A stretch of DNA of 20,000 bases from an uncultured virus (IMG/VR IMGVR_UViG_3300045971_000981) (lineage: Duplodnaviria; Heunggongvirae; Uroviricota; Caudoviricetes), in the IMG/VR virus record IMGVR_UViG_3300045971_000981; one strand, written 5' to 3'. Both the position numbers and the translations under genes were made by a program. The notes under the pieces are model-generated. The model had not been told where the DNA came from. It saw only the letters and a program-made list of their open reading frames with translations, and made no database searches. Of this stretch, positions 1-20,000 are shown piece by piece. Position 1 is the stretch's first letter. Every line of letters begins with the position of its first letter.

Positions 1-784
1 CCAGAAGGCACAGTGCCCAGACCGCATCTTCGATCAGCCCGATTCCCCGCTTCGATGAAAACGCAGACTTGTCGCCACCAAATTTCTCGCTCAACACATG
101 ATGGATGCAAAAATCGGCAAACCGTTTAATACTCAGAGCTTCATCCGCTCGGTTAGGAATCACCCACCGCCCCACAGCGGTACTAGCGCGAACCTGAGCC
201 ATCCGTGCCGTGATACGCCCAAAGACTTCTTGGGAGAGGTCTTCTCCTGTGCTCCGGCTAGATTTAACAACCTCAGAGACTAGAAGCAGTGGCTTCAGAA
301 CATTAGTCCGCTCTGGGTTGTATTTCTTGGCAGGGCGATAAAACTCCCTAATCATCTGGGTGAGTTGCTGGGGGATGGCGATGTGAGACGGATGCCTAGC
401 AACTGCGGTCAAGGACGCTTCTTCAGCTACAATCATCTCGCAGTCTAGCTTGGCGAGTCCGATCGCATCCATCGGGGTCATGCCTGATTCTTCCAAATCC
501 TTCCGCCATTCATCAGCAGATTTAATCTGTTGGCGGATGACAGCCTCTTGATGCTCCTCGAATCGAGAGTATTTGAGCGCTATTCGATCTGATTCGTCTG
601 GATGCGGAGAAGGATGCTGCCCTGTCCAATCCCATAACAGCACGTCAAACACAAGCTGGAAATTATCAGCGTTGGGAACTACTGCATTAATCAACATGGC
701 TACGTCAGCCACGCAGTCCTCGAAAGACTTCTCTTCGTTCATTGATGCAGCAAACTTATCTCTTATCTCTTGAAGGGTGGTCAT
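1..784 (-). CDS. Partial (>=261 aa) protein: unknown N-terminal domain plus C-terminal Cas10d-CTD/Cas11d-like domain
   Basis: Translated by hand: SD AAGGAG then ATG at 784, open to the window edge. C-terminal half reads IPQQLTQMIREFYRPAKKYNPERTNVLKPLLLVSE...QVRASTAVGRWVIPNRADEALSIKRFADFCIHHVLSEKFGGDKSAFSSKRGIGLIEDAVWALCLL. This matches, in order and spacing, recalled cyanobacterial Cas10d C-terminal motifs (P..LT..YR.FYRA.K.YNP..N.VLKP; RV.ASTA.GRWVI..R..E...I..FA; F.GD; LI.D...LY.L). Confidence 0.8.
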   Translation of the reverse strand, partial: MTTLQEIRDKFAASMNEEKSFEDCVADVAMLINAVVPNADNFQLVFDVLLWDWTGQHPSPHPDESDRIALKYSRFEEHQEAVIRQQIKSADEWRKDLEESGMTPMDAIGLAKLDCEMIVAEEASLTAVARHPSHIAIPQQLTQMIREFYRPAKKYNPERTNVLKPLLLVSEVVKSSRSTGEDLSQEVFGRITARMAQVRASTAVGRWVIPNRADEALSIKRFADFCIHHVLSEKFGGDKSAFSSKRGIGLIEDAVWALCLL

Positions 785-789
785 TGTTT

Positions 790-900
790 TCTCCTTAGCT
801 GGGGTAACATCTACCAGCCCCTTACAGGGATTATGTAGCCGCGATCGTGGCAGGTTGTGCAGCCCATCTTCCCGCTAGCGGTATTCGCCCCTGCCACGAT
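790..900 (-). promoter_or_regulatory. Structured ~115-nt 5' leader of the Cas11d-like gene
   Basis: 11-bp inverted repeat ATCGTGGCAGG/CCTGCCACGAT (844-854 and 890-900) enclosing the palindrome CCGCTAGCGG (872-881), followed on the minus strand by a TCCCT-GTA-AGGGG hairpin and the SD. Confidence 0.45.
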
Positions 901-903
901 TGG

Positions 904-912
904 ATTATATCA
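904..912 (-). promoter_or_regulatory. Extended -10 promoter (TGaTATAAT)
   Basis: Perfect TGnTATAAT just after the stop of the upstream gene. The predicted TSS (~897-898) lies near the start of the leader stem. No good -35. Confidence 0.55.
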
Positions 913-1493: not shown

Positions 1494-2606
1494 TCAAATT
1501 CTAAACAACCGATCGCGCACCGTATCAAACAGCGTATCCGTATCCCCAGTCCAGTTCAGCGCAAACTTGTCACCAGTCAGCTTGTCCAAGCAGGCATCCC
1601 CAACCATCTGATCTGGGTGATCCTGAAAATAACGATTGATTTTCACAGGGGAGCCAGTCTTCCCTGTAACTTCGTGCCACTCATCAACGTTGATCCAGTT
1701 GGGCTGGTCATTACTCCGGCTTTCTCGCTTTCGCAACACCAACAAATCAGTACAGACCTCCGTGCCAGAGATTTCCCTGAAAGTCTGCATGGGCAGTCTC
1801 ACCGCACCTAGCAGATCGACTTGAAGGGCAAGGAACGCTCTCCAGCGAGTGTTGGATTCGTTCGCGCCCACACTGTCCAGGGTAGAAGTCGAAGTAATCA
1901 GCACTGCCATGGCACCTGGCTTAAGCAACTGCATGGTCTGATAGATAGCACTGGCATGAAGCCCCACCTTGATATTGACTTTGCTTGTAACCTTGCGCTT
2001 CACACCATCCTCGAAGGGGACGTTGCCCACGGCTAGGTCAAAGTAATTCTCTGGCAGTTGCGGCTCCAGGATGGAGCGGTGGAACCAGTTATCGGTTGGG
2101 TGTAGCAGGCTGGCAACTCGTAGGCTGGTCGGTTCAATGTCTACACCAGAAATACAGGTGGTTTTCTGAAGGGATCTAGGCATGAACAGGGCAAACTGCC
2201 CCATTGCACACCCAGGCTCAATCACGTTGCCTTGCCAGAAGCCCTTGTGAACTGCATAGTCCCAGATGATTTGAATCAATCTAGGATCAGTCTGGTGCTG
2301 GTTCAAGACAACCGACCTAGCTGCATTGAAAGCGCTGAAACCAAGAGCCTTCTCAAGCTCTTCTCGTAGTTCCTGTTCTGAGTTTGACTGGGGGTTGATC
2401 AGCTTGGGTCCGATCGCACCGAAGCCAGGAAACTTTGTCAGCGCTCTCAGATTCTCAGGGTCGGCGTGGTCTTTGCTGAGAGCATAAACCGCATCAACAC
2501 AATCGCGGAATCGCTGCAACGGCTTCCGGGTTAGCAAGTGATCGATGTATGCTTCCCATGCAGTTTCGTCCGGGAATGCTGGGTGGAAAAGATTGCTGTA
2601 GTTCAT
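1494..2606 (-). CDS. Stand-alone N6-adenine DNA methyltransferase domain of the DarB/SNF2-helicase-MTase family (370 aa)
   Basis: FPGFG, HQTDP (FYTP equivalent), motif I VIEPGCAMGQF, VDIEP, motif IV VGNVPF, LKPGAMAVLITSTSTLD, GAVRLP..TF...GTEVCTDLLVLRK, INRYFQDHPDQMVG. No helicase module follows. Confidence 0.85.
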   Translation of the reverse strand: MNYSNLFHPAFPDETAWEAYIDHLLTRKPLQRFRDCVDAVYALSKDHADPENLRALTKFPGFGAIGPKLINPQSNSEQELREELEKALGFSAFNAARSVVLNQHQTDPRLIQIIWDYAVHKGFWQGNVIEPGCAMGQFALFMPRSLQKTTCISGVDIEPTSLRVASLLHPTDNWFHRSILEPQLPENYFDLAVGNVPFEDGVKRKVTSKVNIKVGLHASAIYQTMQLLKPGAMAVLITSTSTLDSVGANESNTRWRAFLALQVDLLGAVRLPMQTFREISGTEVCTDLLVLRKRESRSNDQPNWINVDEWHEVTGKTGSPVKINRYFQDHPDQMVGDACLDKLTGDKFALNWTGDTDTLFDTVRDRLFRI

Positions 2607-3516: not shown

Positions 3517-5118
3517 TTAATACCCAGTATTCGCCGAGGGCAAATCTGCCCATGCTTGTTCAAGCCTGCTGAACTTTGCCGCTTCCACCACTGCCAGTGG
3601 CTTCTTTTTACTGGCTACTGCCAACAGCCCATCCAATTCCAGGATGCGACCTTGGCTTTTAGCAGAGATCGCCGCACCCTTGACGATCGCTGCCAACTCT
3701 GCCCCAGAGAACAGATGAGTTGCGATCGCCAGTTCGCCTGCAAATTGCTGAGCCTTTCCACGATCAAGCCTTTTGGCTAGATGCAACTCCAGAATCTCAG
3801 CCCTGCCCAGTTCATCGGGCAAGTCAATCCTGAATATCTCATCGAACCTTCCAGCCCGCAGGAATTCAGAGGGTAACGCAGAGATGTCGTTCGCGGTCGC
3901 TACCAGGAACACAGGCTCCGCACAGTCGTTCATCCAAGTCAGGAATTGCCCGAACACCCGTCTGGTTGTGCCACCATCATTATCCCCGGCACCCCCAAAC
4001 ATCTTCTCCACCTCGTCGATCCATAGCACACAAGGCGCTGACGCTTCGACTAGCGCAAAGATATGAGCTGTCTTGCTCTCAGAACCACCGACGTATTTGT
4101 CCAGGAAAGCGCTGGGCTGCAACTGGATAACTGGGCAGCCCAGAATCTCTCCAGCCGTTTTCGCTAACAAACTCTTGCCCGTGCCAGGATGCCCAGTCAG
4201 AAGGATGCCCCTTGGTCGATCGTCCCCAGCCTCTTTGGTCAGCAAGGACGATCGCTCGGTTAGCCACTGGCGCAGGTAAGTGATCCCTCCTAATTCCACA
4301 TCTGGTTCTGATGCGACCAACAGCCCAGATTGCTTCAGCCGCTCAACTTTGGCATCGTGCAATGCCGCGATCGTGCTCTCGCCCAGTTCACTGTGGGCAG
4401 AAATTGCCTCACGAACGACAGAACCTATCTGCCGAACAGATGGAAGCCCTTGCGCTGCTCGTACCAACCGCGCCCAGAACTCTGGAGTGTCGGTGTACCG
4501 GAACGCTCCCGATTCCCGCCGTCGATTGGGTAGGTCAACAACCGCCCTGATATGTTGCCCAATCTCCTCGCCTGTGGGGGGCAGAATTTTGATAACCTCA
4601 ACCCGCCCATTGAGTTCTGGGGGAATCTCCAGGTTTTCACCAACGAGAATGATCCGCCGTGCCTGTGTGATCCGGCTGGTGGCTAACTCGTCGATCGTCG
4701 TCTTCAGAACTCTCTGACGGGCAAAAGTCGCTGCCGGATCGCCCGTTGCCCCGTTGATATACTTGTGGGCATCGAGCAACACGAAGATGCCACTGTCTCG
4801 CTCTTGTCCTGAGTCCCGACGTATGCTGTCTTGAGAGCGAATCAGCCCCAGGAATTTATCAGGTGTATTTTGCAGGTAGGTCTCGTCTGTGAAGCTATCA
4901 GCCCTGAAGCCGATCTCACCTCGATTGCTTGTCGTCACTGCCCGCAAACCGTCAGTCACGTCCCAGACGAAAACATGGGGAATATGGCTGGCTGGGCTGG
5001 TGAGGGTGGCAATTCCCTCTAGGATTCTAAGTTCCTCACAGGAGGGGCAGTCGATCGCCACTGCCACGCCAGAATTTAACTTGTGAGCGATCTGCTCAAA
5101 AATGCTAGTTGTCGTCAT
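3517..5118 (-). CDS. Ycf46-like AAA+ ATPase (SpoVK/Ycf46/Vps4 family), 533 aa
   Basis: Walker A GHPGTGKS, pore loop KYVGGSE, Walker B VLWIDEVEK, sensor-1 VATAND, Arg finger FLRAGRFD, degenerate N-terminal AAA module (IFVLLDAHKY). GGGAG SD before ATG 5118. Confidence 0.92.
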   Translation of the reverse strand: MTTTSIFEQIAHKLNSGVAVAIDCPSCEELRILEGIATLTSPASHIPHVFVWDVTDGLRAVTTSNRGEIGFRADSFTDETYLQNTPDKFLGLIRSQDSIRRDSGQERDSGIFVLLDAHKYINGATGDPAATFARQRVLKTTIDELATSRITQARRIILVGENLEIPPELNGRVEVIKILPPTGEEIGQHIRAVVDLPNRRRESGAFRYTDTPEFWARLVRAAQGLPSVRQIGSVVREAISAHSELGESTIAALHDAKVERLKQSGLLVASEPDVELGGITYLRQWLTERSSLLTKEAGDDRPRGILLTGHPGTGKSLLAKTAGEILGCPVIQLQPSAFLDKYVGGSESKTAHIFALVEASAPCVLWIDEVEKMFGGAGDNDGGTTRRVFGQFLTWMNDCAEPVFLVATANDISALPSEFLRAGRFDEIFRIDLPDELGRAEILELHLAKRLDRGKAQQFAGELAIATHLFSGAELAAIVKGAAISAKSQGRILELDGLLAVASKKKPLAVVEAAKFSRLEQAWADLPSANTGY

Positions 5119-5611
5119 GGCTGATCTCCCAGTATCGTAGTCCCAGTTTCTTGTTCCAGTCAGCAACGATCGCCGATCGCTCCGGCTCAGGCAAAACATC
5201 CATAGTGAAATCATCGAGCAAGTCTGCGATCGTTACGTCAGCCGCATCCAGCACCGCTTGCTGCTCAGGTGTGCAGAGATACTTGTTGAAGGCTCTAGAA
5301 ACAACTTCGCAATCATGATCAGAGAAGCCCTGGAACATTGTTGTCGATAGCATTTCCCACACCTGTTGTGGGATGTCAACGGTTGGTGTTCCCTGGATCA
5401 TGGCATCAATCTCTTTTCTGCAACCTCGATAGTGCTCTGTGATCACGATCGGATGAGAATGCGCCGCTTCCGCTTCCGTCACCCGCACCGACAATCTCCA
5501 AGGCTCTTTTTCAGCGTAGTCCAGCGCAATTTCAGCCGCTTGCATACCATCCTTAGCTTCGATAATCATGGTCAGGCAGACTGTGAAACACTTGCTCTGT
5601 TCTTCAGTCAT
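5105..5611 (-). CDS. Hypothetical protein (168 aa)
   Basis: ATGA overlap with the LRR gene stop, GGAG SD, and its end overlaps the AAA start. Confidence 0.75.
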   Translation of the reverse strand: MTEEQSKCFTVCLTMIIEAKDGMQAAEIALDYAEKEPWRLSVRVTEAEAAHSHPIVITEHYRGCRKEIDAMIQGTPTVDIPQQVWEMLSTTMFQGFSDHDCEVVSRAFNKYLCTPEQQAVLDAADVTIADLLDDFTMDVLPEPERSAIVADWNKKLGLRYWEISHDDN

Positions 5612-6186
5612 GGTGAAGTTTCTCCCTTGATAACTTCTACACCCTTGGCTTCCAGAGCTAGAATCTCTGGTGAATCAGGGGCGATCGGATTGTTGCGGAT
5701 GTAAAGGTGCTTCAGCTTCGGCAGTTCCAGGATTGAACTAGGAAGGCTGGTAATATTGTTCCTGGTTATATCTAGCGCGATCAGGCTGGTTAATTGTCCA
5801 ATCTCGTCAGGCAGGCAATCTAATCGGTTATCAAAAGCGCTCAAGTCTTTCAGCTTGGTTAGGTTTCCGATCGATCCTGGAAGCTGAGTGAGTTGGTTAT
5901 GGCTGACGCTAAGCATGGTCAGATTCTTCAGCGCTCCGATCTGCTCTGGAAGCCGAGCAAACTGGTTCCAGGAAATATGTAACTCTTCGAGGCTTGTGAA
6001 GTCGCTAATCCATTCCGGCAGCGTAGTCAGCTTGTTGTCAGAGATGGACATCTCTCGCAAGTTCTTCAGTAGCTGGATGCTAGCCGGGAGGCTAGTGATC
6101 TCAGACCCCATCAAATTCAATTCCCTAGTCTTCTTGGCGCTCAGAAGTCTGCGCTCAATTACATCATTCATGCTCATCACGCTCAT
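5608..6186 (-). CDS. Stand-alone leucine-rich repeat protein (192 aa)
   Basis: Six consecutive 23-aa repeats (L..LP..IG.L..L..L.I..N.) plus an N-cap (TRELNLMGSE) ending in NNPI. ATGA overlaps at both ends. Confidence 0.95.
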   Translation of the reverse strand: MSVMSMNDVIERRLLSAKKTRELNLMGSEITSLPASIQLLKNLREMSISDNKLTTLPEWISDFTSLEELHISWNQFARLPEQIGALKNLTMLSVSHNQLTQLPGSIGNLTKLKDLSAFDNRLDCLPDEIGQLTSLIALDITRNNITSLPSSILELPKLKHLYIRNNPIAPDSPEILALEAKGVEVIKGETSP

Positions 6187-6413
6187 GCCGTCACCGTCCC
6201 CTTCTGAGTCGTAACCACGACTTCTTCATTCGCCACCTGATGAAACTCAGGTTTCAGCGTCAACCCAGTCTGATCACCCAGCAGTGCCCGAACTTCTGCG
6301 GTTTTACCCAGGCAAGCGCTGCCCTGCATTCCATGTGCCTCTACCTTGACCGTCAGGTCAGGGTAGATCGCTACTTCAATGTATTCGTCCACGATCACAA
6401 TCTCCAATTTCAA
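6183..6413 (-). CDS. DUF2997 family protein
   Basis: I.PD.TV.VEAHG..G.AC...T..V...LG......KPEF motif, lying next to DUF1257 and a Ycf46-like AAA. True start may be GTG 6392 after GGAG. Confidence 0.8.
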   Translation of the reverse strand: MKLEIVIVDEYIEVAIYPDLTVKVEAHGMQGSACLGKTAEVRALLGDQTGLTLKPEFHQVANEEVVVTTQKGTVTA

Positions 6414-6464
6414 AAACGACTAGCTAGTGTACTTCGGCTGTGACGAAGTACAATCTCACAGACT

Positions 6465-6884
6465 TCACGCCAAAACTTTATCCCGAATCTGGAACCGAAC
6501 AGCGCCATCGCCACTAGCAGGCACTTCCACGACTTCCTTCTCGGAACCAAGCTCCCTGGTAAGCAGTGCAATCTGGTACTGTTTGACCAATTCCTGGGGA
6601 AAGTTCGGAATCCTGATGCCAGAGAACCCGTCATCCATGAGCATGTCGTATTCTTTGGTCTCGGAATTCCACAGGAAACCAAGATCAGGTTGGGCTGTGG
6701 GTGCAATATCCTTCGCCCGTACCACGATGTTCGCCATATTGTCACTAGAACCGTCGCGGTACCAGCCCTGAATCTTGACCGGATTCATGTGAACTTCTGG
6801 TAAAACATTGAATAGCTTCTCCAATGCGGCAATCAGAGCCGCACGATCGGTCAACTTAGCCTTAATCGTTGCAAAATGGGACAT
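6465..6884 (-). CDS. DUF1257 (Ycf35-like) protein
   Basis: MSHFATIKAKLTDRAALIAALEKL N-terminus, I.GW, DLGFLWN...YDM..D. AAGGAG SD. Confidence 0.85.
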   Translation of the reverse strand: MSHFATIKAKLTDRAALIAALEKLFNVLPEVHMNPVKIQGWYRDGSSDNMANIVVRAKDIAPTAQPDLGFLWNSETKEYDMLMDDGFSGIRIPNFPQELVKQYQIALLTRELGSEKEVVEVPASGDGAVRFQIRDKVLA

Positions 6885-6907
6885 AAAAACTCCTTAAAAA
6901 CTGGAAC

Positions 6908-7951
6908 CTAAGCAATCCGTCGATACGTCACACCCTCATCATCACCCTTGGCGTATGTCTCCTGCCTGAAATTCAGGCTCAAGTACTCCATCAACTGATC
7001 TCGCATCGTTCCCACCTGGTCAATGAGCCGATTGGCATTAAATTCCAAGTCACGCGAGACCAAATCAATTTTTTCCGCCAACTTATCTGCCCGTTCAGCG
7101 GTATTCGCCACGTAACCGCCAGTGGTTTTAGTGGCTTCCATCATTTCAGCCGCTTGTGTTAGCAGATCCTCTACTTCTGCGTTCATTTGCTCGATCGCAG
7201 GCTGCCTGAAATCCTCGATCGACATCATCATCTGCGGCAGCATCGTCACGTTTCCACCAGAAATCTCGCTAACAACAGCTTTCAGCGCTTCTAGCTGTGT
7301 TCGATGCACTTCCGGGATGTAATACAGTCCGCCTGAATCCGTCTGAGCAACAATTCCGCAGACTTTCACGAAATTCTTGATCAGCCCGCGCATTTCTTCA
7401 GCGGTCATCTGCTGAAATTCTTGATACTTATCAATCAACTGCTGGATAGCAGGATGCCAACAGGAATAGTGGAACTCATGGGTGTTCTTGTTCCACCGCA
7501 CCTGCGAAATCGTTGGGCAATCGGCATCGGTGCCCTGTTCGTTTGCCCGCCATTCCTTCAGAACCAGATTGACGCAAGGGTCTGTGTCAGCAGTCTCTGT
7601 CTCGGAAACTTTACCCCAGAACCACCCGTCCTTTTGACGCTGTGCCTTACTGCGATTAACAGCACCGAAAGCCTTCGTGAAAAACTGCTTCGGGCGAAGT
7701 TGAGCGGGTAGAAATTCTTCTCGCAGCCCATTCACGGTCGCAGATACCTCCAAGTCTGCGTAATCGAAGCGTGTTTGGGATGGGACTGTCCAGTAAACCA
7801 GGAACCCGATCGTCCTTGCCCCTAACTTCTGCTGAATCCGAACAGACTCTCTCATCTGTTCAAACCCACTCTTAGCGGTGTGCCTGCTACCAGTCATGGA
7901 GCCGCTCTCCACAACATCGCTCACAACTCTCGCGCCTAAATCTAAAGTCAT
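6908..7951 (-). CDS. DUF6744/DUF3150-like protein (347 aa)
   Basis: GFLVYWTV...DL......GL.EEFLP.......F.KA N-terminal motif, GGLYYIP motif and a helical C-terminus. AGGAGG SD. First gene of the AAA operon. Confidence 0.6.
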   Translation of the reverse strand: MTLDLGARVVSDVVESGSMTGSRHTAKSGFEQMRESVRIQQKLGARTIGFLVYWTVPSQTRFDYADLEVSATVNGLREEFLPAQLRPKQFFTKAFGAVNRSKAQRQKDGWFWGKVSETETADTDPCVNLVLKEWRANEQGTDADCPTISQVRWNKNTHEFHYSCWHPAIQQLIDKYQEFQQMTAEEMRGLIKNFVKVCGIVAQTDSGGLYYIPEVHRTQLEALKAVVSEISGGNVTMLPQMMMSIEDFRQPAIEQMNAEVEDLLTQAAEMMEATKTTGGYVANTAERADKLAEKIDLVSRDLEFNANRLIDQVGTMRDQLMEYLSLNFRQETYAKGDDEGVTYRRIA

Positions 7952-10840: not shown

Positions 10841-10952
10841 TGGTTTTACGCTCGTTAGGCTCAGCTAAAACTGTAAGTGAATCAAATGCTTCCTAGACGC
10901 TAGGTTACAGGGTCGATCGTCCGGGAAATGTAAGCTAAGAAAACTTGATGAA

Positions 10953-11320
10953 TCACTCTGGCACCTTTAGTACTGGCAGTGGATCCAGGAACGATTCGAC
11001 TTTGATATTGCTACCATTGTCAGTCGTTCTCTGCCGTTTCACCGTGCAGCCAGTGCTAGCGATCGCCGTGGTGATCTTTTCTGCTAGCTGAAGTGTGAAC
11101 TCAACACCCTGCGACCTTGTGGAAATCAGAGCGTCGTTCATATAGGTCGTTCTTCTGTTATGCAGAAGCAGCCCTTTCCGATCTAGATCGTCGATCATCT
11201 CATCAAGATCTGGAGTGGACGCACAATAAGATCTGGAGTGGACGCACAATCAATTAGGATGTGGTCACCCTTAACGAGAACACACGCAGTCAACGGAATA
11301 TCGCTCAGATCTAATATCAT
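10953..11320 (-). pseudogene. Hypothetical gene frameshifted by a 23-bp tandem duplication
   Basis: GAGGG SD and ATG 11320 (MILDLSDIPLTACVLVKGDHILID). Removing one 23-bp copy joins it in frame to CASTPDLDEM...LKVPE, giving 114 aa. Confidence 0.75.
11205..11250. repeat. Perfect 23-bp tandem duplication
   Basis: AAGATCTGGAGTGGACGCACAAT twice (11205-11227, 11228-11250). Confidence 0.97.
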
Positions 11321-11349
11321 GGTTACCCTCTTCAGTTCTTGGAATCCTA

Positions 11350-11399
11350 CGATTAGTATAAATCATCTAATCGATAGCCACTAAGAATTCGGCTATACT
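11350..11399. promoter_or_regulatory. Divergent promoter region with two adjacent inverted repeats
   Basis: TATACT on minus (11360-11355) and on plus (11394-11399). Inverted repeats CGATTAG..CTAATCG (11350-11373) and ATAGCC..GGCTAT (11374-11396). Confidence 0.45.
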
Positions 11400-11403
11400 T
11401 TAT

Positions 11404-11829
11404 ATGCCACACCCAACCCTGCCAATCATGGAATTTTCCCAACTCCTCAGCAACCCGCTAATCAGCTTGTCGATCGGAGCTACGATCGGCTCCCTCCTCC
11501 CAACCGCCTTCAAGTCTCTCTCCACACTAGCAACCACCCTACTGCAAACTAAGGTCATTCCAGTCGAAACCGTGACCAAGGCGTTCGATGCCCTGGATCA
11601 AGGACTGCGAACCTATGCCGGGGAAGGTAACCCAGTTTCCACCAGCGAGATTTACTGTGCAGCTCGTGTGGTTGCCCAGAATATCAGCGACAGACAACTA
11701 ACCGACTCTGAATTGAAATCCTGGACAGCCTACCTTGCTAAGAAGTTCGACGGTAACGCCATGTTGTCTAAGAAGTTGCCTGCCACCTTGAGCCCGATCG
11801 CGGGTCAGGTTCTTAAAGCACTTCAATAA
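11404..11829 (+). CDS. Hypothetical protein with hydrophobic N-terminal helix (only plus-strand gene)
   Basis: Occupies a gap in the minus-strand genes, has its own -10 and terminator, and carries LLSNPLISLSIGATIGSLL. Start could be ATG 11428. Confidence 0.8.
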   Translation: MPHPTLPIMEFSQLLSNPLISLSIGATIGSLLPTAFKSLSTLATTLLQTKVIPVETVTKAFDALDQGLRTYAGEGNPVSTSEIYCAARVVAQNISDRQLTDSELKSWTAYLAKKFDGNAMLSKKLPATLSPIAGQVLKALQ

Positions 11830-11896: not shown

Positions 11897-12400
11897 TTAA
11901 ACCCGATCGGTCAAGATCTTATAGCTGAACCCAAGCCCCAATTCCTCAACAACTTCACCGATCGACATTCCTGGGTACGTCCCGTCGGCATCTATATCTA
12001 TTCCACTGCACTGCCATTCATTGCTAGGGATTCCGTAGACGTAAATCACACCTTCACGCTCTACCTCTACAGCGAAGCAGTAAATTGCCCCATTATTGAA
12101 AATAAAGTAATTAGTGTGGGTAGCCTCTGCGAAGCGATCGTCCCTTCTCGGTTCAGTCACAGCGCCGACATACTTGGCGCGGTACTCTCCCCGGAAATCC
12201 TCACAGACTCCATCGACGAATAGGAACGAACCTTGACCGCCGATAACCCGCAGTCGCATACTGTCTTCTGGGTCACCCTCTTTGGAAGGATCTTGAAGGC
12301 AGTCCGTAAAACGAACTCTAGCTGGATGACTACCTGAGTCACCCAGCTCTGGATGACTGCCCTTCGCGGGTTCATAGATTTTAATCGTGTGGTACATCAT
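11897..12400 (-). CDS. Hypothetical acidic protein (167 aa)
   Basis: GGGAG SD before ATG 12400. Confidence 0.7.
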   Translation of the reverse strand: MMYHTIKIYEPAKGSHPELGDSGSHPARVRFTDCLQDPSKEGDPEDSMRLRVIGGQGSFLFVDGVCEDFRGEYRAKYVGAVTEPRRDDRFAEATHTNYFIFNNGAIYCFAVEVEREGVIYVYGIPSNEWQCSGIDIDADGTYPGMSIGEVVEELGLGFSYKILTDRV

Positions 12401-12650
12401 CAGCCATCTCCCAAGCATAGGCTAGCGCTGTCTTCACGGCAGTTGTCATGGGCATTCCCTCATAGCGCTGGATAATACCGTCTGCCATCAACTCTGCCAA
12501 AGCAGTAATAGTCACAGGCATGGCATTTTCAGCCCCAACACCAGGGACTTGCTCAAGAACCTCGACGACGATCGACCGGAACTGACAAGGGTCGCTTGCT
12601 TGGAGCAAGTCGATGATTATTTGCTTGGCTGATTCAACAGTGTCATTCAT
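12381..12650 (-). CDS. Hypothetical protein (89 aa), possibly winged-helix-like
   Basis: Compact ORF in the gene run; ITALAELMADGIIQR weakly resembles a wHTH recognition helix and wing. Confidence 0.65.
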   Translation of the reverse strand: MNDTVESAKQIIIDLLQASDPCQFRSIVVEVLEQVPGVGAENAMPVTITALAELMADGIIQRYEGMPMTTAVKTALAYAWEMADDVPHD

Positions 12651-19585: not shown

Positions 19586-20000
19586 CTACTTGGTGGTTTT
19601 CATTGCCTTATAAGCCTCAATCCGGGTTTTAACCATAGCGCGGGCGATCGATGGTAATAAAAAACTCTCAGGATTTTGATCATTGAAAGTTTTCACAATA
19701 CGCAAAGTTTCACACTCTGTAAATGCATCATCGGTCACGTTGTGGCTAAACTCGCCATCAATAACGTTATGCTTGTAACCCGCTTTATCAAGCAACTTCA
19801 TTACCTTGTCAGCGATAGACGAATCAAGACGATTGACGATCGGGGCAAACTGCGATCGCAGAGAATTGTAATAGTCTAGCCATTCCTCAGCAGCAGTTGG
19901 GGCATCCTCAGCAGTTGGGGCATCCTCAGCAGTTGGGGCATCCTCAGCAGTTGGGGCATCCTCAGCAGTTGGGGCATCCTCAGCAGTTGGGGCATCCTCA
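19586..20000 (-). CDS. Partial hypothetical protein with (EDAPTA)n repeats
   Basis: The track ORF 19586-19801 stays open to the right edge: (EDAPTA)6-AEEWLDYYNSLRSQFAPIVNRLDSSIADKVMKLL... Confidence 0.8.
   Translation of the reverse strand, partial: EDAPTAEDAPTAEDAPTAEDAPTAEDAPTAEDAPTAAEEWLDYYNSLRSQFAPIVNRLDSSIADKVMKLLDKAGYKHNVIDGEFSHNVTDDAFTECETLRIVKTFNDQNPESFLLPSIARAMVKTRIEAYKAMKTTK
19891..20000. repeat. 18-bp perfect coding tandem repeat, at least 6 copies
   Basis: CAGCAGTTGGGGCATCCT six times plus CA, truncated by the window edge. Confidence 0.97.

Follow-up and report, generated by a model that had tools for sequence, protein, structure and literature searches.

What does a homologue of the small subunit of a type I-D CRISPR complex do as a gene of its own on a virus? 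The question is posed by the left end of a 20,000-nucleotide stretch of DNA, called the window here, from an uncultured virus assigned to the Caudoviricetes (IMG/VR record IMGVR_UViG_3300045971_000981). A minus-strand open reading frame (ORF), 784..2, leaves the window at this edge with 261 codons visible. An identical protein, P0001, is encoded on a 71.6-kb contig and has 271 residues, so the 10 C-terminal residues and the stop codon lie outside the window. The family comprises 16 conserved proteins of 268–282 residues with 48–57% identity. The protein has two modules, an acidic N-terminal domain (N-domain) and a Cas11d-like C-terminal module (Table 1). We lean towards reading the gene as an anti-CRISPR (Acr) candidate of a mobile element, probably a cyanophage, against the type I-D system of the host.

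Residues ~128–271 are a true homologue of Cas11d and of the C-terminal domain (CTD) of Cas10d, and form a helical bundle. The NCBIfam profile TIGR03174 (Cas10d/Csc3) matches residues 116–245 with an expectation value (E) of 3.5e-11, at profile positions 805–931 of 946. The score of 41.9 bits is under the 60-bit whole-protein cut-off, as expected because a single domain matches and only the last ~130 profile positions are covered. With the cut-off missed and an N-domain unrelated to Cas10d, the window protein is not a full Cas10d/Csc3 equivalog. Three PADLOC Cas10d models also match the protein (E 4.3e-12 to 3e-11). In a tblastn search of 72,556 plasmids, four of four matches fall on the 3' end of annotated cyanobacterial cas10d genes, one of which belongs to a canonical cas3'-cas10d-cas7d-cas5d-cas6 operon. 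The profile of the 16 family members finds Cas11d in the PDB (7sba_J, residues 6–144 of 146, E 1.8e-5), and hhalign aligns the C-terminal half with Cas10d (99.7%, E 6.9e-27), a comparison that serves as the positive control for the N-domain below. Of the Cas10d proteins, P0035 is closest and shares 36.6% identity with the module over 134 residues. All detectable relatives of the module are type I-D Cas10d proteins, with scores up to 139.6 bits. A search for longer homologues containing residues 130–271 gave none; an exhaustive profile search afterwards did recover Cas10d proteins.

The fold agrees with the sequence. The AlphaFold2 model of the full protein has a predicted local distance difference test score (pLDDT) of 87.8 and a predicted template modelling score (pTM) of 0.60. 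Its top Foldseek match is Cas11d 7sba_J (E 2.3e-4, target-normalised template modelling (TM) score 0.75), followed by two Cas10d chains (E 2.4e-3 and 3.6e-3), and the next match is at E 0.65. VIA-align, a search independent of Foldseek, superposes the module on Cas11d 7sba_J with Z 17.6 and a root-mean-square deviation of 2.2 Å over 135 of 146 residues. The Z values are 16.9 for Cas10d residues 828–975, 9.4 for archaeal Cas10d and 8.0 for the first unrelated chain. An earlier note on this DNA had named the Cas10d/Cas11d homology, and the profile and model comparisons that it proposed are both significant and agree with it. The motifs that it quoted (IPQQLTQMIREFYRPAKKYNPERTNVLKP, QVRASTAVGRWVIPNRADEALSIKRFA, FGGDK and LIEDAVWALCLL) are present in the translation.

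Cas11d is reported to be translated inside cas10d, to be present in two copies in Cascade, to work when supplied in trans and to be needed for double-stranded DNA (dsDNA) binding (bioRxiv 2020.04.18.045682), and it moves upon PAM (protospacer-adjacent motif) recognition (PMC9123187). Compared with Cas11d (PDB 7SBA chain J), the window module has the same fold, is homologous over the whole subunit and keeps the basic character (median net charge +4, versus +3 for Cas10d-CTD). It differs in its setting: the gene lies outside cas10d and type I-D cas operons as a stand-alone 271-residue gene, and the module stands behind a 127-residue acidic domain. It also falls into a distinct clade, made up of mobile-element proteins, and has no D-x-x-L-F loop. 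No internal start at the module boundary is conserved in the family alignment.

Residues 1–127, modelled alone, give a confident fold with pLDDT 95.7 and pTM 0.80. The net charge of the domain is −15 in P0001, and the median over 35 domains is −10 with an isoelectric point of 4.7. The best solved chain (VIA, Z 6.1), the best viral model (BFVD, E 0.27) and the Atlas clusters (scores 0.78, TM < 0.5) are all at chance level. Two origins for the domain were rejected with hhalign, a second Cas11-like domain (0.2% against its own C-terminal half) and a piece of Cas10d (0.13%). The fusion of an unrelated N-terminus of ~130 residues to the Cas11d-like domain, as described earlier from the letters, is thus borne out by a domain with no detectable relative in these comparisons. 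ArdA and Ocr are acidic DNA-mimic anti-defence proteins. The N-domain is strongly negative like them, and the family occurs near ArdA in one locus (L001); no fold or sequence similarity to them is detected in the N-domain, and DNA mimicry by it is just an idea.

The two modules are also found apart. The exhaustive profile search gave 96 representatives, followed by domain mapping and NCBIfam scans. The architectures are the N-domain plus Cas11d-like form of the window gene (N+C, ~270 residues), solo Cas11d-like proteins (~143 residues), Cas11d-like modules with a C-terminal extension (C+X) that is unrecognised except for one case with a sigma-70 region-4-like segment, and the N-domain alone (126–130 residues, also in L021). 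Where the Cas11d-like part follows other N-termini, all of these are Cas10d fragments by domain mapping and NCBIfam. In a tree of 83 modules, whose root is not known, a 99/96 branch has all 46 non-Cas10d forms (28 N+C, 13 solo and 5 C+X) to one side. Its other side holds 29 Cas10d rows, 6 solo-length rows and the 233-residue P0029. The orphans form a clade separate from Cas10d, and both modules also exist as separate genes. A non-functional remnant was considered and rejected, the 28 N+C rows being intact, conserved and without breaks.

Several members deserve separate mention. The N-domain is a gene without the Cas11d-like module in P0040, P0041 and P0047, at 2069-2476 in L021 and at 1312-1779 in L022; the L021 gene stands in the same gene order as in the phage L008. 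Since such genes exist without an adjacent Cas11d-like module (L021), the partner of the N-domain would be encoded elsewhere. The C+X form, an N-terminal Cas11d-like module with an extension of ~120–170 residues, is seen in P0033, P0044, P0048, P0052, P0054 and P0086, and P0086 has an extension similar to sigma-70 region 4. On a 137-kb IMG/VR contig, L026 (8001-8411), there is a truncated copy of the P0033 kind. With the solo protein P0043 as query, no viral locus was found. P0029 is partial; it holds two tandem Cas11d-like modules, has a Cas10d-profile score of 180 bits and may be the end of a Cas10d with, after it, a small subunit that is separate or duplicated.

A complex with Cas10d is predicted, and it involves the N-domain. 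The full protein was co-folded with residues 1000–1163 of P0035 in a single job with custom alignments; the Cas10d C-domain was chosen by analogy with the published AcrIB4 prediction. The complex scores 0.81, and the best of three controls 0.00. Among solved complexes 116 of 157 reach this mark, as do 2 of 215 mismatched pairs; these counts are rough given the custom alignments. The runs show at least 45% contact agreement, with partner pLDDT at least 78. The predicted interface is, unexpectedly, between N-domain residues 4–100 and Cas10d residues 1028–1096, so that the N-domain, not the Cas11d-like module, would sit on the Cas11-like domain of Cas10d, a model in favour of binding rather than a measurement of it. 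Because the N-domain forms the interface, the prediction is not simply a memory of the solved Cas11d–Cas11d contact. Within the predicted site are D1054, L1057 and F1058, with conservation in 69%, 63% and 75% of the 36 rows on the Cas10d side, and the loop has a deletion at 1057/1058 in 28 of 28 N+C orphans. This deletion and the lack of relationship between the N-domain and Cas10d argue against an echo of intramolecular packing. Cas10d and the orphan consensus differ at 21 of 28 interface positions versus 58 of 101 elsewhere, which is only a trend (7/28 the same versus 43/101; Fisher p 0.12).

The surroundings of the gene are those of an orphan on a mobile element. The genes of the window are nearly all on the minus strand. 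No cas gene was found in the window with Pfam (28 ORFs), NCBIfam (29 ORFs), PHROGs or PADLOC, and neither was a CRISPR array, an Rfam family or a transfer RNA, so the orphan status and the lack of a recognisable cas gene in the rest of the window stand as first described. PADLOC reports no defence system in the window, only weak generic similarities to a methyltransferase (mad2) and an AAA protein (IetA). HIP1 octamers occur 21 times versus 0.43 expected, an abundance that we take to be a cyanobacterial signature. A DarB-like methyltransferase (1494..2606) is encoded two genes upstream on the same strand and is neighbourhood evidence for a possible anti-defence setting.

Relatives of the gene were located on one genome contig, 21 metagenome contigs and two IMG/VR contigs (L023 and L024). 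No cas or tns families occur beside them among 111 ORFs of seven loci searched with Pfam and 27 ORFs of six of these loci searched with NCBIfam. Their downstream genes encode a tape measure, a DarB-like helicase protein, a small HD hydrolase or IS200/IS605 proteins. L008 is clearly a tailed phage, with the order major capsid, cement, Mu gp36/gp37-like genes, homologue, 146-residue ORF and tape measure. The gene is in the tail-gene block directly before the tape measure in three loci, L008, L018 and L024. In L023 the homologue is flanked by a DarB-like methyltransferase and a downstream DarB-like helicase protein of 1560 residues. L001, an element in a Chroococcidiopsis metagenome-assembled genome (MAG), has ArdA (~9 kb from the homologue) and DUF932 genes upstream; downstream are a small RelA/SpoT-type HD phosphohydrolase gene adjoining the homologue and also an integrase gene. 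The ArdA and HD phosphohydrolase entries of L001 are at 532-1038 and 10889-11443. L009 and L014 have IS200/IS605 and integrase genes. Synteny is otherwise loose across the loci, as expected for an accessory gene. The tailed phage L008, the IMG/VR contigs and the DarB-like and ArdA neighbours support the mobile-element setting proposed in the earlier note.

On the host side, we used 401 genomes of the class that holds the genome of L001 (G001). Cas10d is above the cut-off in 107 of the 401, which makes the presumed target a common one in this group of hosts. Only G001 of the 401 genomes has the N+C form, a rarity in cells that speaks for the Acr reading; a 108-residue fragment is found besides in G081. 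G001 is a MAG of unstated completeness, and its sole TIGR03174 match is the orphan protein itself. The open frame in G081 (C54:10087-10341) matches just the final portion of the Cas11d-like module and may be an orphan fragment; the full Cas10d of G081 is on a different contig. No related prophage was seen in the 401 genomes among the best two candidates per genome, which are mostly matches to the AAA-ATPase core. A 36-nucleotide match of 92% in G376 was rejected as a spacer because it surrounds a HIP1 site in coding DNA and a repeat array is absent there.

In the mechanism that we favour, the C-terminal module (~128–271) is Cas11d in a diverged form, a copy of the small subunit that the 3' end of cas10d encodes, and the acidic module (1–127) would clamp onto the authentic Cas11-like domain of Cas10d. 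The N-domain would presumably also grip free Cas11d, since Cas11d has the same sequence as the Cas11-like domain of Cas10d. Two Cas11d copies line the belly of the I-D Cascade. After entry, the protein would engage the minor filament of Cascade: the N-domain would grip Cas10d-CTD or Cas11d, and the mimic module would occupy or block a Cas11d slot. The small-subunit filament may be capped, displaced or sequestered in this way, and no stable R-loop would form on dsDNA. This would be a case of subunit poisoning, as proposed for the Cas8b/Cas11b-derived AcrIB4. Binding is suggested by one controlled prediction, and inhibition of interference would be its consequence. The decoy anti-CRISPR that the earlier note had put forward is the best explanation that we infer; the mechanism suggested by the one complex prediction differs from a plain decoy in that the N-domain is the predicted binder.

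A bolder version goes further, and we put it forward as possible but somewhat doubtful. With this protein would begin the first bacterial Acr family against type I-D, and it would be a two-part "minor-filament capper", and part of a combinatorial cyanophage toolkit. As a capper, the acidic domain would grip authentic Cas11d or Cas10d through the loop that is deleted in the viral copy, with the mimic in the neighbouring slot. As a toolkit built around a captured small subunit, the parts would circulate separately in cyanophages, as N-only genes, solo mimics and mimic fusions including that with the sigma-70 region-4-like helix-turn-helix (HTH).

The Acr reading has to be weighed against several points. 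Its view of function is a prediction from sequence and models. The complex prediction is one job with custom alignments, the divergence at the interface is a trend, and chain 1, the Cas10d piece, is itself homologous to the C-module of the orphan protein, so an N-to-C contact between protein copies is equally possible from the model. G001, the sole cellular genome with a full-length relative, shows no Cas10d, and with the N+C form in one genome the base for co-occurrence is n=1, which counts mildly against it. No CRISPR spacer against the window was seen in the 401 genomes among the best two candidates per genome. No Aca-like (Acr-associated) HTH neighbour was seen in the window or the relatives' loci with Pfam, and no known acr or aca gene was seen in the neighbourhoods. 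The tail-block position in L008, L018 and L024 is compatible with a structural or assembly role, and the gene runs off the window, so that its downstream DNA in this element lies outside.

Some of these points would fit an exapted nucleic-acid-binding module with a phage role unrelated to CRISPR, such as a DarB-like accessory or a packaged, injected or tail-assembly protein, an explanation that we regard as unlikely. It would account for the gene inside a split DarB-like module in L023, with the same methyltransferase upstream in the window, for the tail-block position, for the presence of the gene in G001 without a detectable Cas10d, and for the basic charge, which is kept as in DNA-contacting small subunits. 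The neighbourhoods, however, vary widely (tail genes, DarB-like genes, ArdA with HD hydrolase, IS elements, integrases), and for this reason a moron or accessory gene fits better than a fixed partner of one module. It also has to face that, for the module, no relatives other than I-D Cas10d proteins are detectable and that the predicted specific contact is with authentic Cas10d-CTD. In a different reading, the N-domain would pair with the Cas11d-like module of another copy, in a head-to-tail dimer or filament, and the Cas10d contact would only reflect the homology of chain 1 to the protein's own C-module. We consider such self-assembly quite improbable; it could still serve an anti-defence role. 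The identity of chain 1 with the C-module of the orphan protein (36.6%) is compatible with it, and so is the fusion of N and C in 28 of 83 tree rows, which suggests that the modules work together. The modest pTM of the full model despite its pLDDT likewise indicates that, inside a single chain, neither domain holds a fixed place relative to the other. Against self-assembly, the D-x-x-L-F loop of the predicted site is missing from the N+C orphans, most interface positions differ between Cas10d and the orphan consensus, and N-only genes occur without an adjacent Cas11d-like module (L021).

A role in favour of CRISPR appears very improbable. The gene could be the first of a reduced I-D derivative or of a CRISPR-guided transposon, or a phage-supplied Cas11d that helps host Cascade or re-programmes it. 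What follows the gene downstream lies out of view, Cas11d is reported to complement Cascade in trans (bioRxiv 2020.04.18.045682), and cyanobacterial type I-D CRISPR-guided transposons are described (PMC9881144). In the same source, extra Cas11 and Cas7 modestly lowered the activity of the I-D transposon instead of aiding it. No cas or tns family stands beside the relatives in the 111 (Pfam) and 27 (NCBIfam) ORFs searched, the window has no array, the orphan clade is apart from all Cas10d rows, and its module has no copy of the loop conserved in Cas10d. The mini I-D system continuing to the left, the alternative offered in the earlier note, finds no support because no cas family was found among these neighbouring ORFs of the relatives.

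For the favoured Acr reading there are precedents. AcrIB3 is described as a Cas5 homologue that inhibits Listeria type I-B, so the precedent cited for this locus was accurate. AcrIB3 and AcrIB4 are both reported as mobile-element homologues of Cascade subunits that block type I-B upstream of DNA binding. The counterpart of AcrIB4 is the Cas11b region of Cas8b, and a replacement of Cas11 by AcrIB4 is predicted (bioRxiv 2025.06.06.658234). The window family resembles them as a Cascade-subunit homologue outside cas loci on mobile elements, in a clade apart from true Cas proteins, which is the pattern reported for both. The identity to the parent Cas protein is also similar (38% reported there, 36.6% here), and AcrIB4 likewise derives from a small-subunit-encoding region. 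The differences are the subtype (I-D, not I-B), the host phylum and an extra domain that is the predicted binder rather than the mimic; AcrIB4 is compared by its description only. Acr activity is shown for AcrIB3 and AcrIB4, and by analogy the window family is a candidate. It would fit the Cas-derived type of Acr, in another subtype and another host phylum and with an acidic domain, the predicted binder, joined to it.

The only I-D inhibitor named in what we cite from a 2023 review is the archaeal-viral AcrID1, which is acidic and binds Cas10d (PMC10212523). AcrID1 (SIRV2/SIRV3 gp02) is like the window protein in its acidic character, in Cas10d as presumed target and in a proposed block of the DNA path (PMC10212523, PMC9123187). 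It is unlike it in being an archaeal-viral 13-kDa homodimer and not a Cas homologue. No similarity to AcrID1 was detected with the family profile against the PDB, in which matches up to E 1 are Cas11d, Cas10d and one chance-level row; entry 6THH, which holds AcrID1, is within the set searched. We found no description of an orphan or viral Cas11d in the literature on Cas11d, on type I-D anti-CRISPRs in cyanophages and on phage-encoded Cas11 homologues. The main text of the preprint by Katz et al. contains no I-D, Cas11, Cas10d or cyanophage; its supplementary table of 358 viral cas genes might list Cas10d-type matches.

The expression signals of the gene are sequence motifs. The Shine-Dalgarno (SD) sequence noticed earlier is indeed read as AAGGAG at 796..791, and SD-like AAGGA or GAGG is present in the final 20 nucleotides of 11 of 21 upstream regions. 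A perfect extended -10 motif, TGATATAAT (912..904, minus), directly follows the stop of the upstream ORF. The generic two-hexamer promoter scan lists no minus-strand site at 912..904, and the promoter is therefore given as a motif only. TGnTAnnnT within 160 nucleotides upstream occurs in 5 of 21 upstream regions (the window, L004, L005, L014 and L016). The claim of an own extended -10 promoter holds for the motif, while the scan does not list it and most relatives do not conserve it. The 11-nucleotide inverted repeat sits in the 130-nucleotide leader between the -10-like motif and the SD. The leader of the window gene folds no better than shuffled sequences (z −1.09), and no consensus pairs are found in 5' leaders over 10 loci. 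A GC-rich hairpin-like motif of the type CCGGG-ATTAGCGC-CCCGG is conserved in L002, L003, L008, L009 and L011, ~20–45 nucleotides 5' of the start codons and directly before the SD. Small hairpins of other kinds stand there in the window and in L001. No RNA data are listed among the public runs with window DNA.

Window DNA recurs with zero differences as fragments in a second pond metagenome from a separate study. A 27,810-base contig in run X1 reaches 7.9 kb left of the window, and a 48-mer from the left end of the window has no match in viral contigs. The leucine-rich repeat (LRR) protein is unusual in a phage or mobile-element gene set and matches the LRR part of XopAC-type effector models (NCBIfam, 4.3e-46). 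The AAA ATPase of the 3517-7951 cluster matches phrog_8638 (2.9e-95) and is ~31% identical to mycobacteriophage AAA-ATPases, and relatives of the DUF6744 protein are found on Pseudanabaena plasmids. The C3 ORF is upstream of the Cas11d-like gene in L002, L006, L007, L008, L011, L021 and L022, and its homologue in the window is 11.6 kb away from that gene. The 18-bp repeat at the right edge falls within a 5'-open minus-strand ORF (19586..19999); in translation it would give a repeat of six residues.

Table 1. Positions of the gene, its modules and signals, and other features of the window
Feature	Position	Strand	Basis or remark
Gene for 271-residue two-module protein	2..784	minus	ORF; identical full-length P0001; family of 16
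Cas11d-like module, residues 128-261 visible (to 271 in full protein)	2..403	minus	sequence and fold homology
N-domain, residues 1-127, six-helix acidic domain	404..784	minus	model, charge, predicted interface
Shine-Dalgarno AAGGAG	791..796	minus	6 nucleotides 5' of ATG (784..782); sequence reading
11-nucleotide perfect inverted repeat	844..900 (844-854 / 890-900)	.	arms 35 nucleotides apart
Extended -10-like motif TGATATAAT	904..912	minus	candidate promoter only; sequence reading
ORF immediately upstream, up to 204 residues	914..1528	minus	no family match
DarB-like antirestriction-type DNA methyltransferase domain protein, 370 residues	1494..2606	minus	phrog_10089, E 1.8e-62
Cluster of AAA ATPase, DUF1257 protein and DUF6744 protein	3517-7951	minus	Pfam, PHROGs
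LRR protein, 192 residues	5608-6186	minus	LRR_8, LRR_14 (Pfam), phrog_6688
Exact 23-bp direct repeat, two tandem copies	11205-11250		
89-residue ORF, cluster C3 homologue	12381-12650	minus	no family match
Perfect 18-bp tandem repeat, 6.1 copies	19891-20000		right window edge

Cyanobacteria have type I-D as one of their major CRISPR systems, as the share of sampled genomes with Cas10d indicates, and it is also used as a genome-editing tool. If the Acr reading is true, a bacterial inhibitor derived from Cas11d would be an off-switch for type I-D tools and a natural means of probing how Cascade takes up its internally translated small subunit. It would also be a clear case of a virus that captured part of a cas gene and combined it with a new binding domain. 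Profile searches with sub-domains of cas genes can reveal anti-defence genes in cyanophages, where nearly all neighbouring genes lack annotation.

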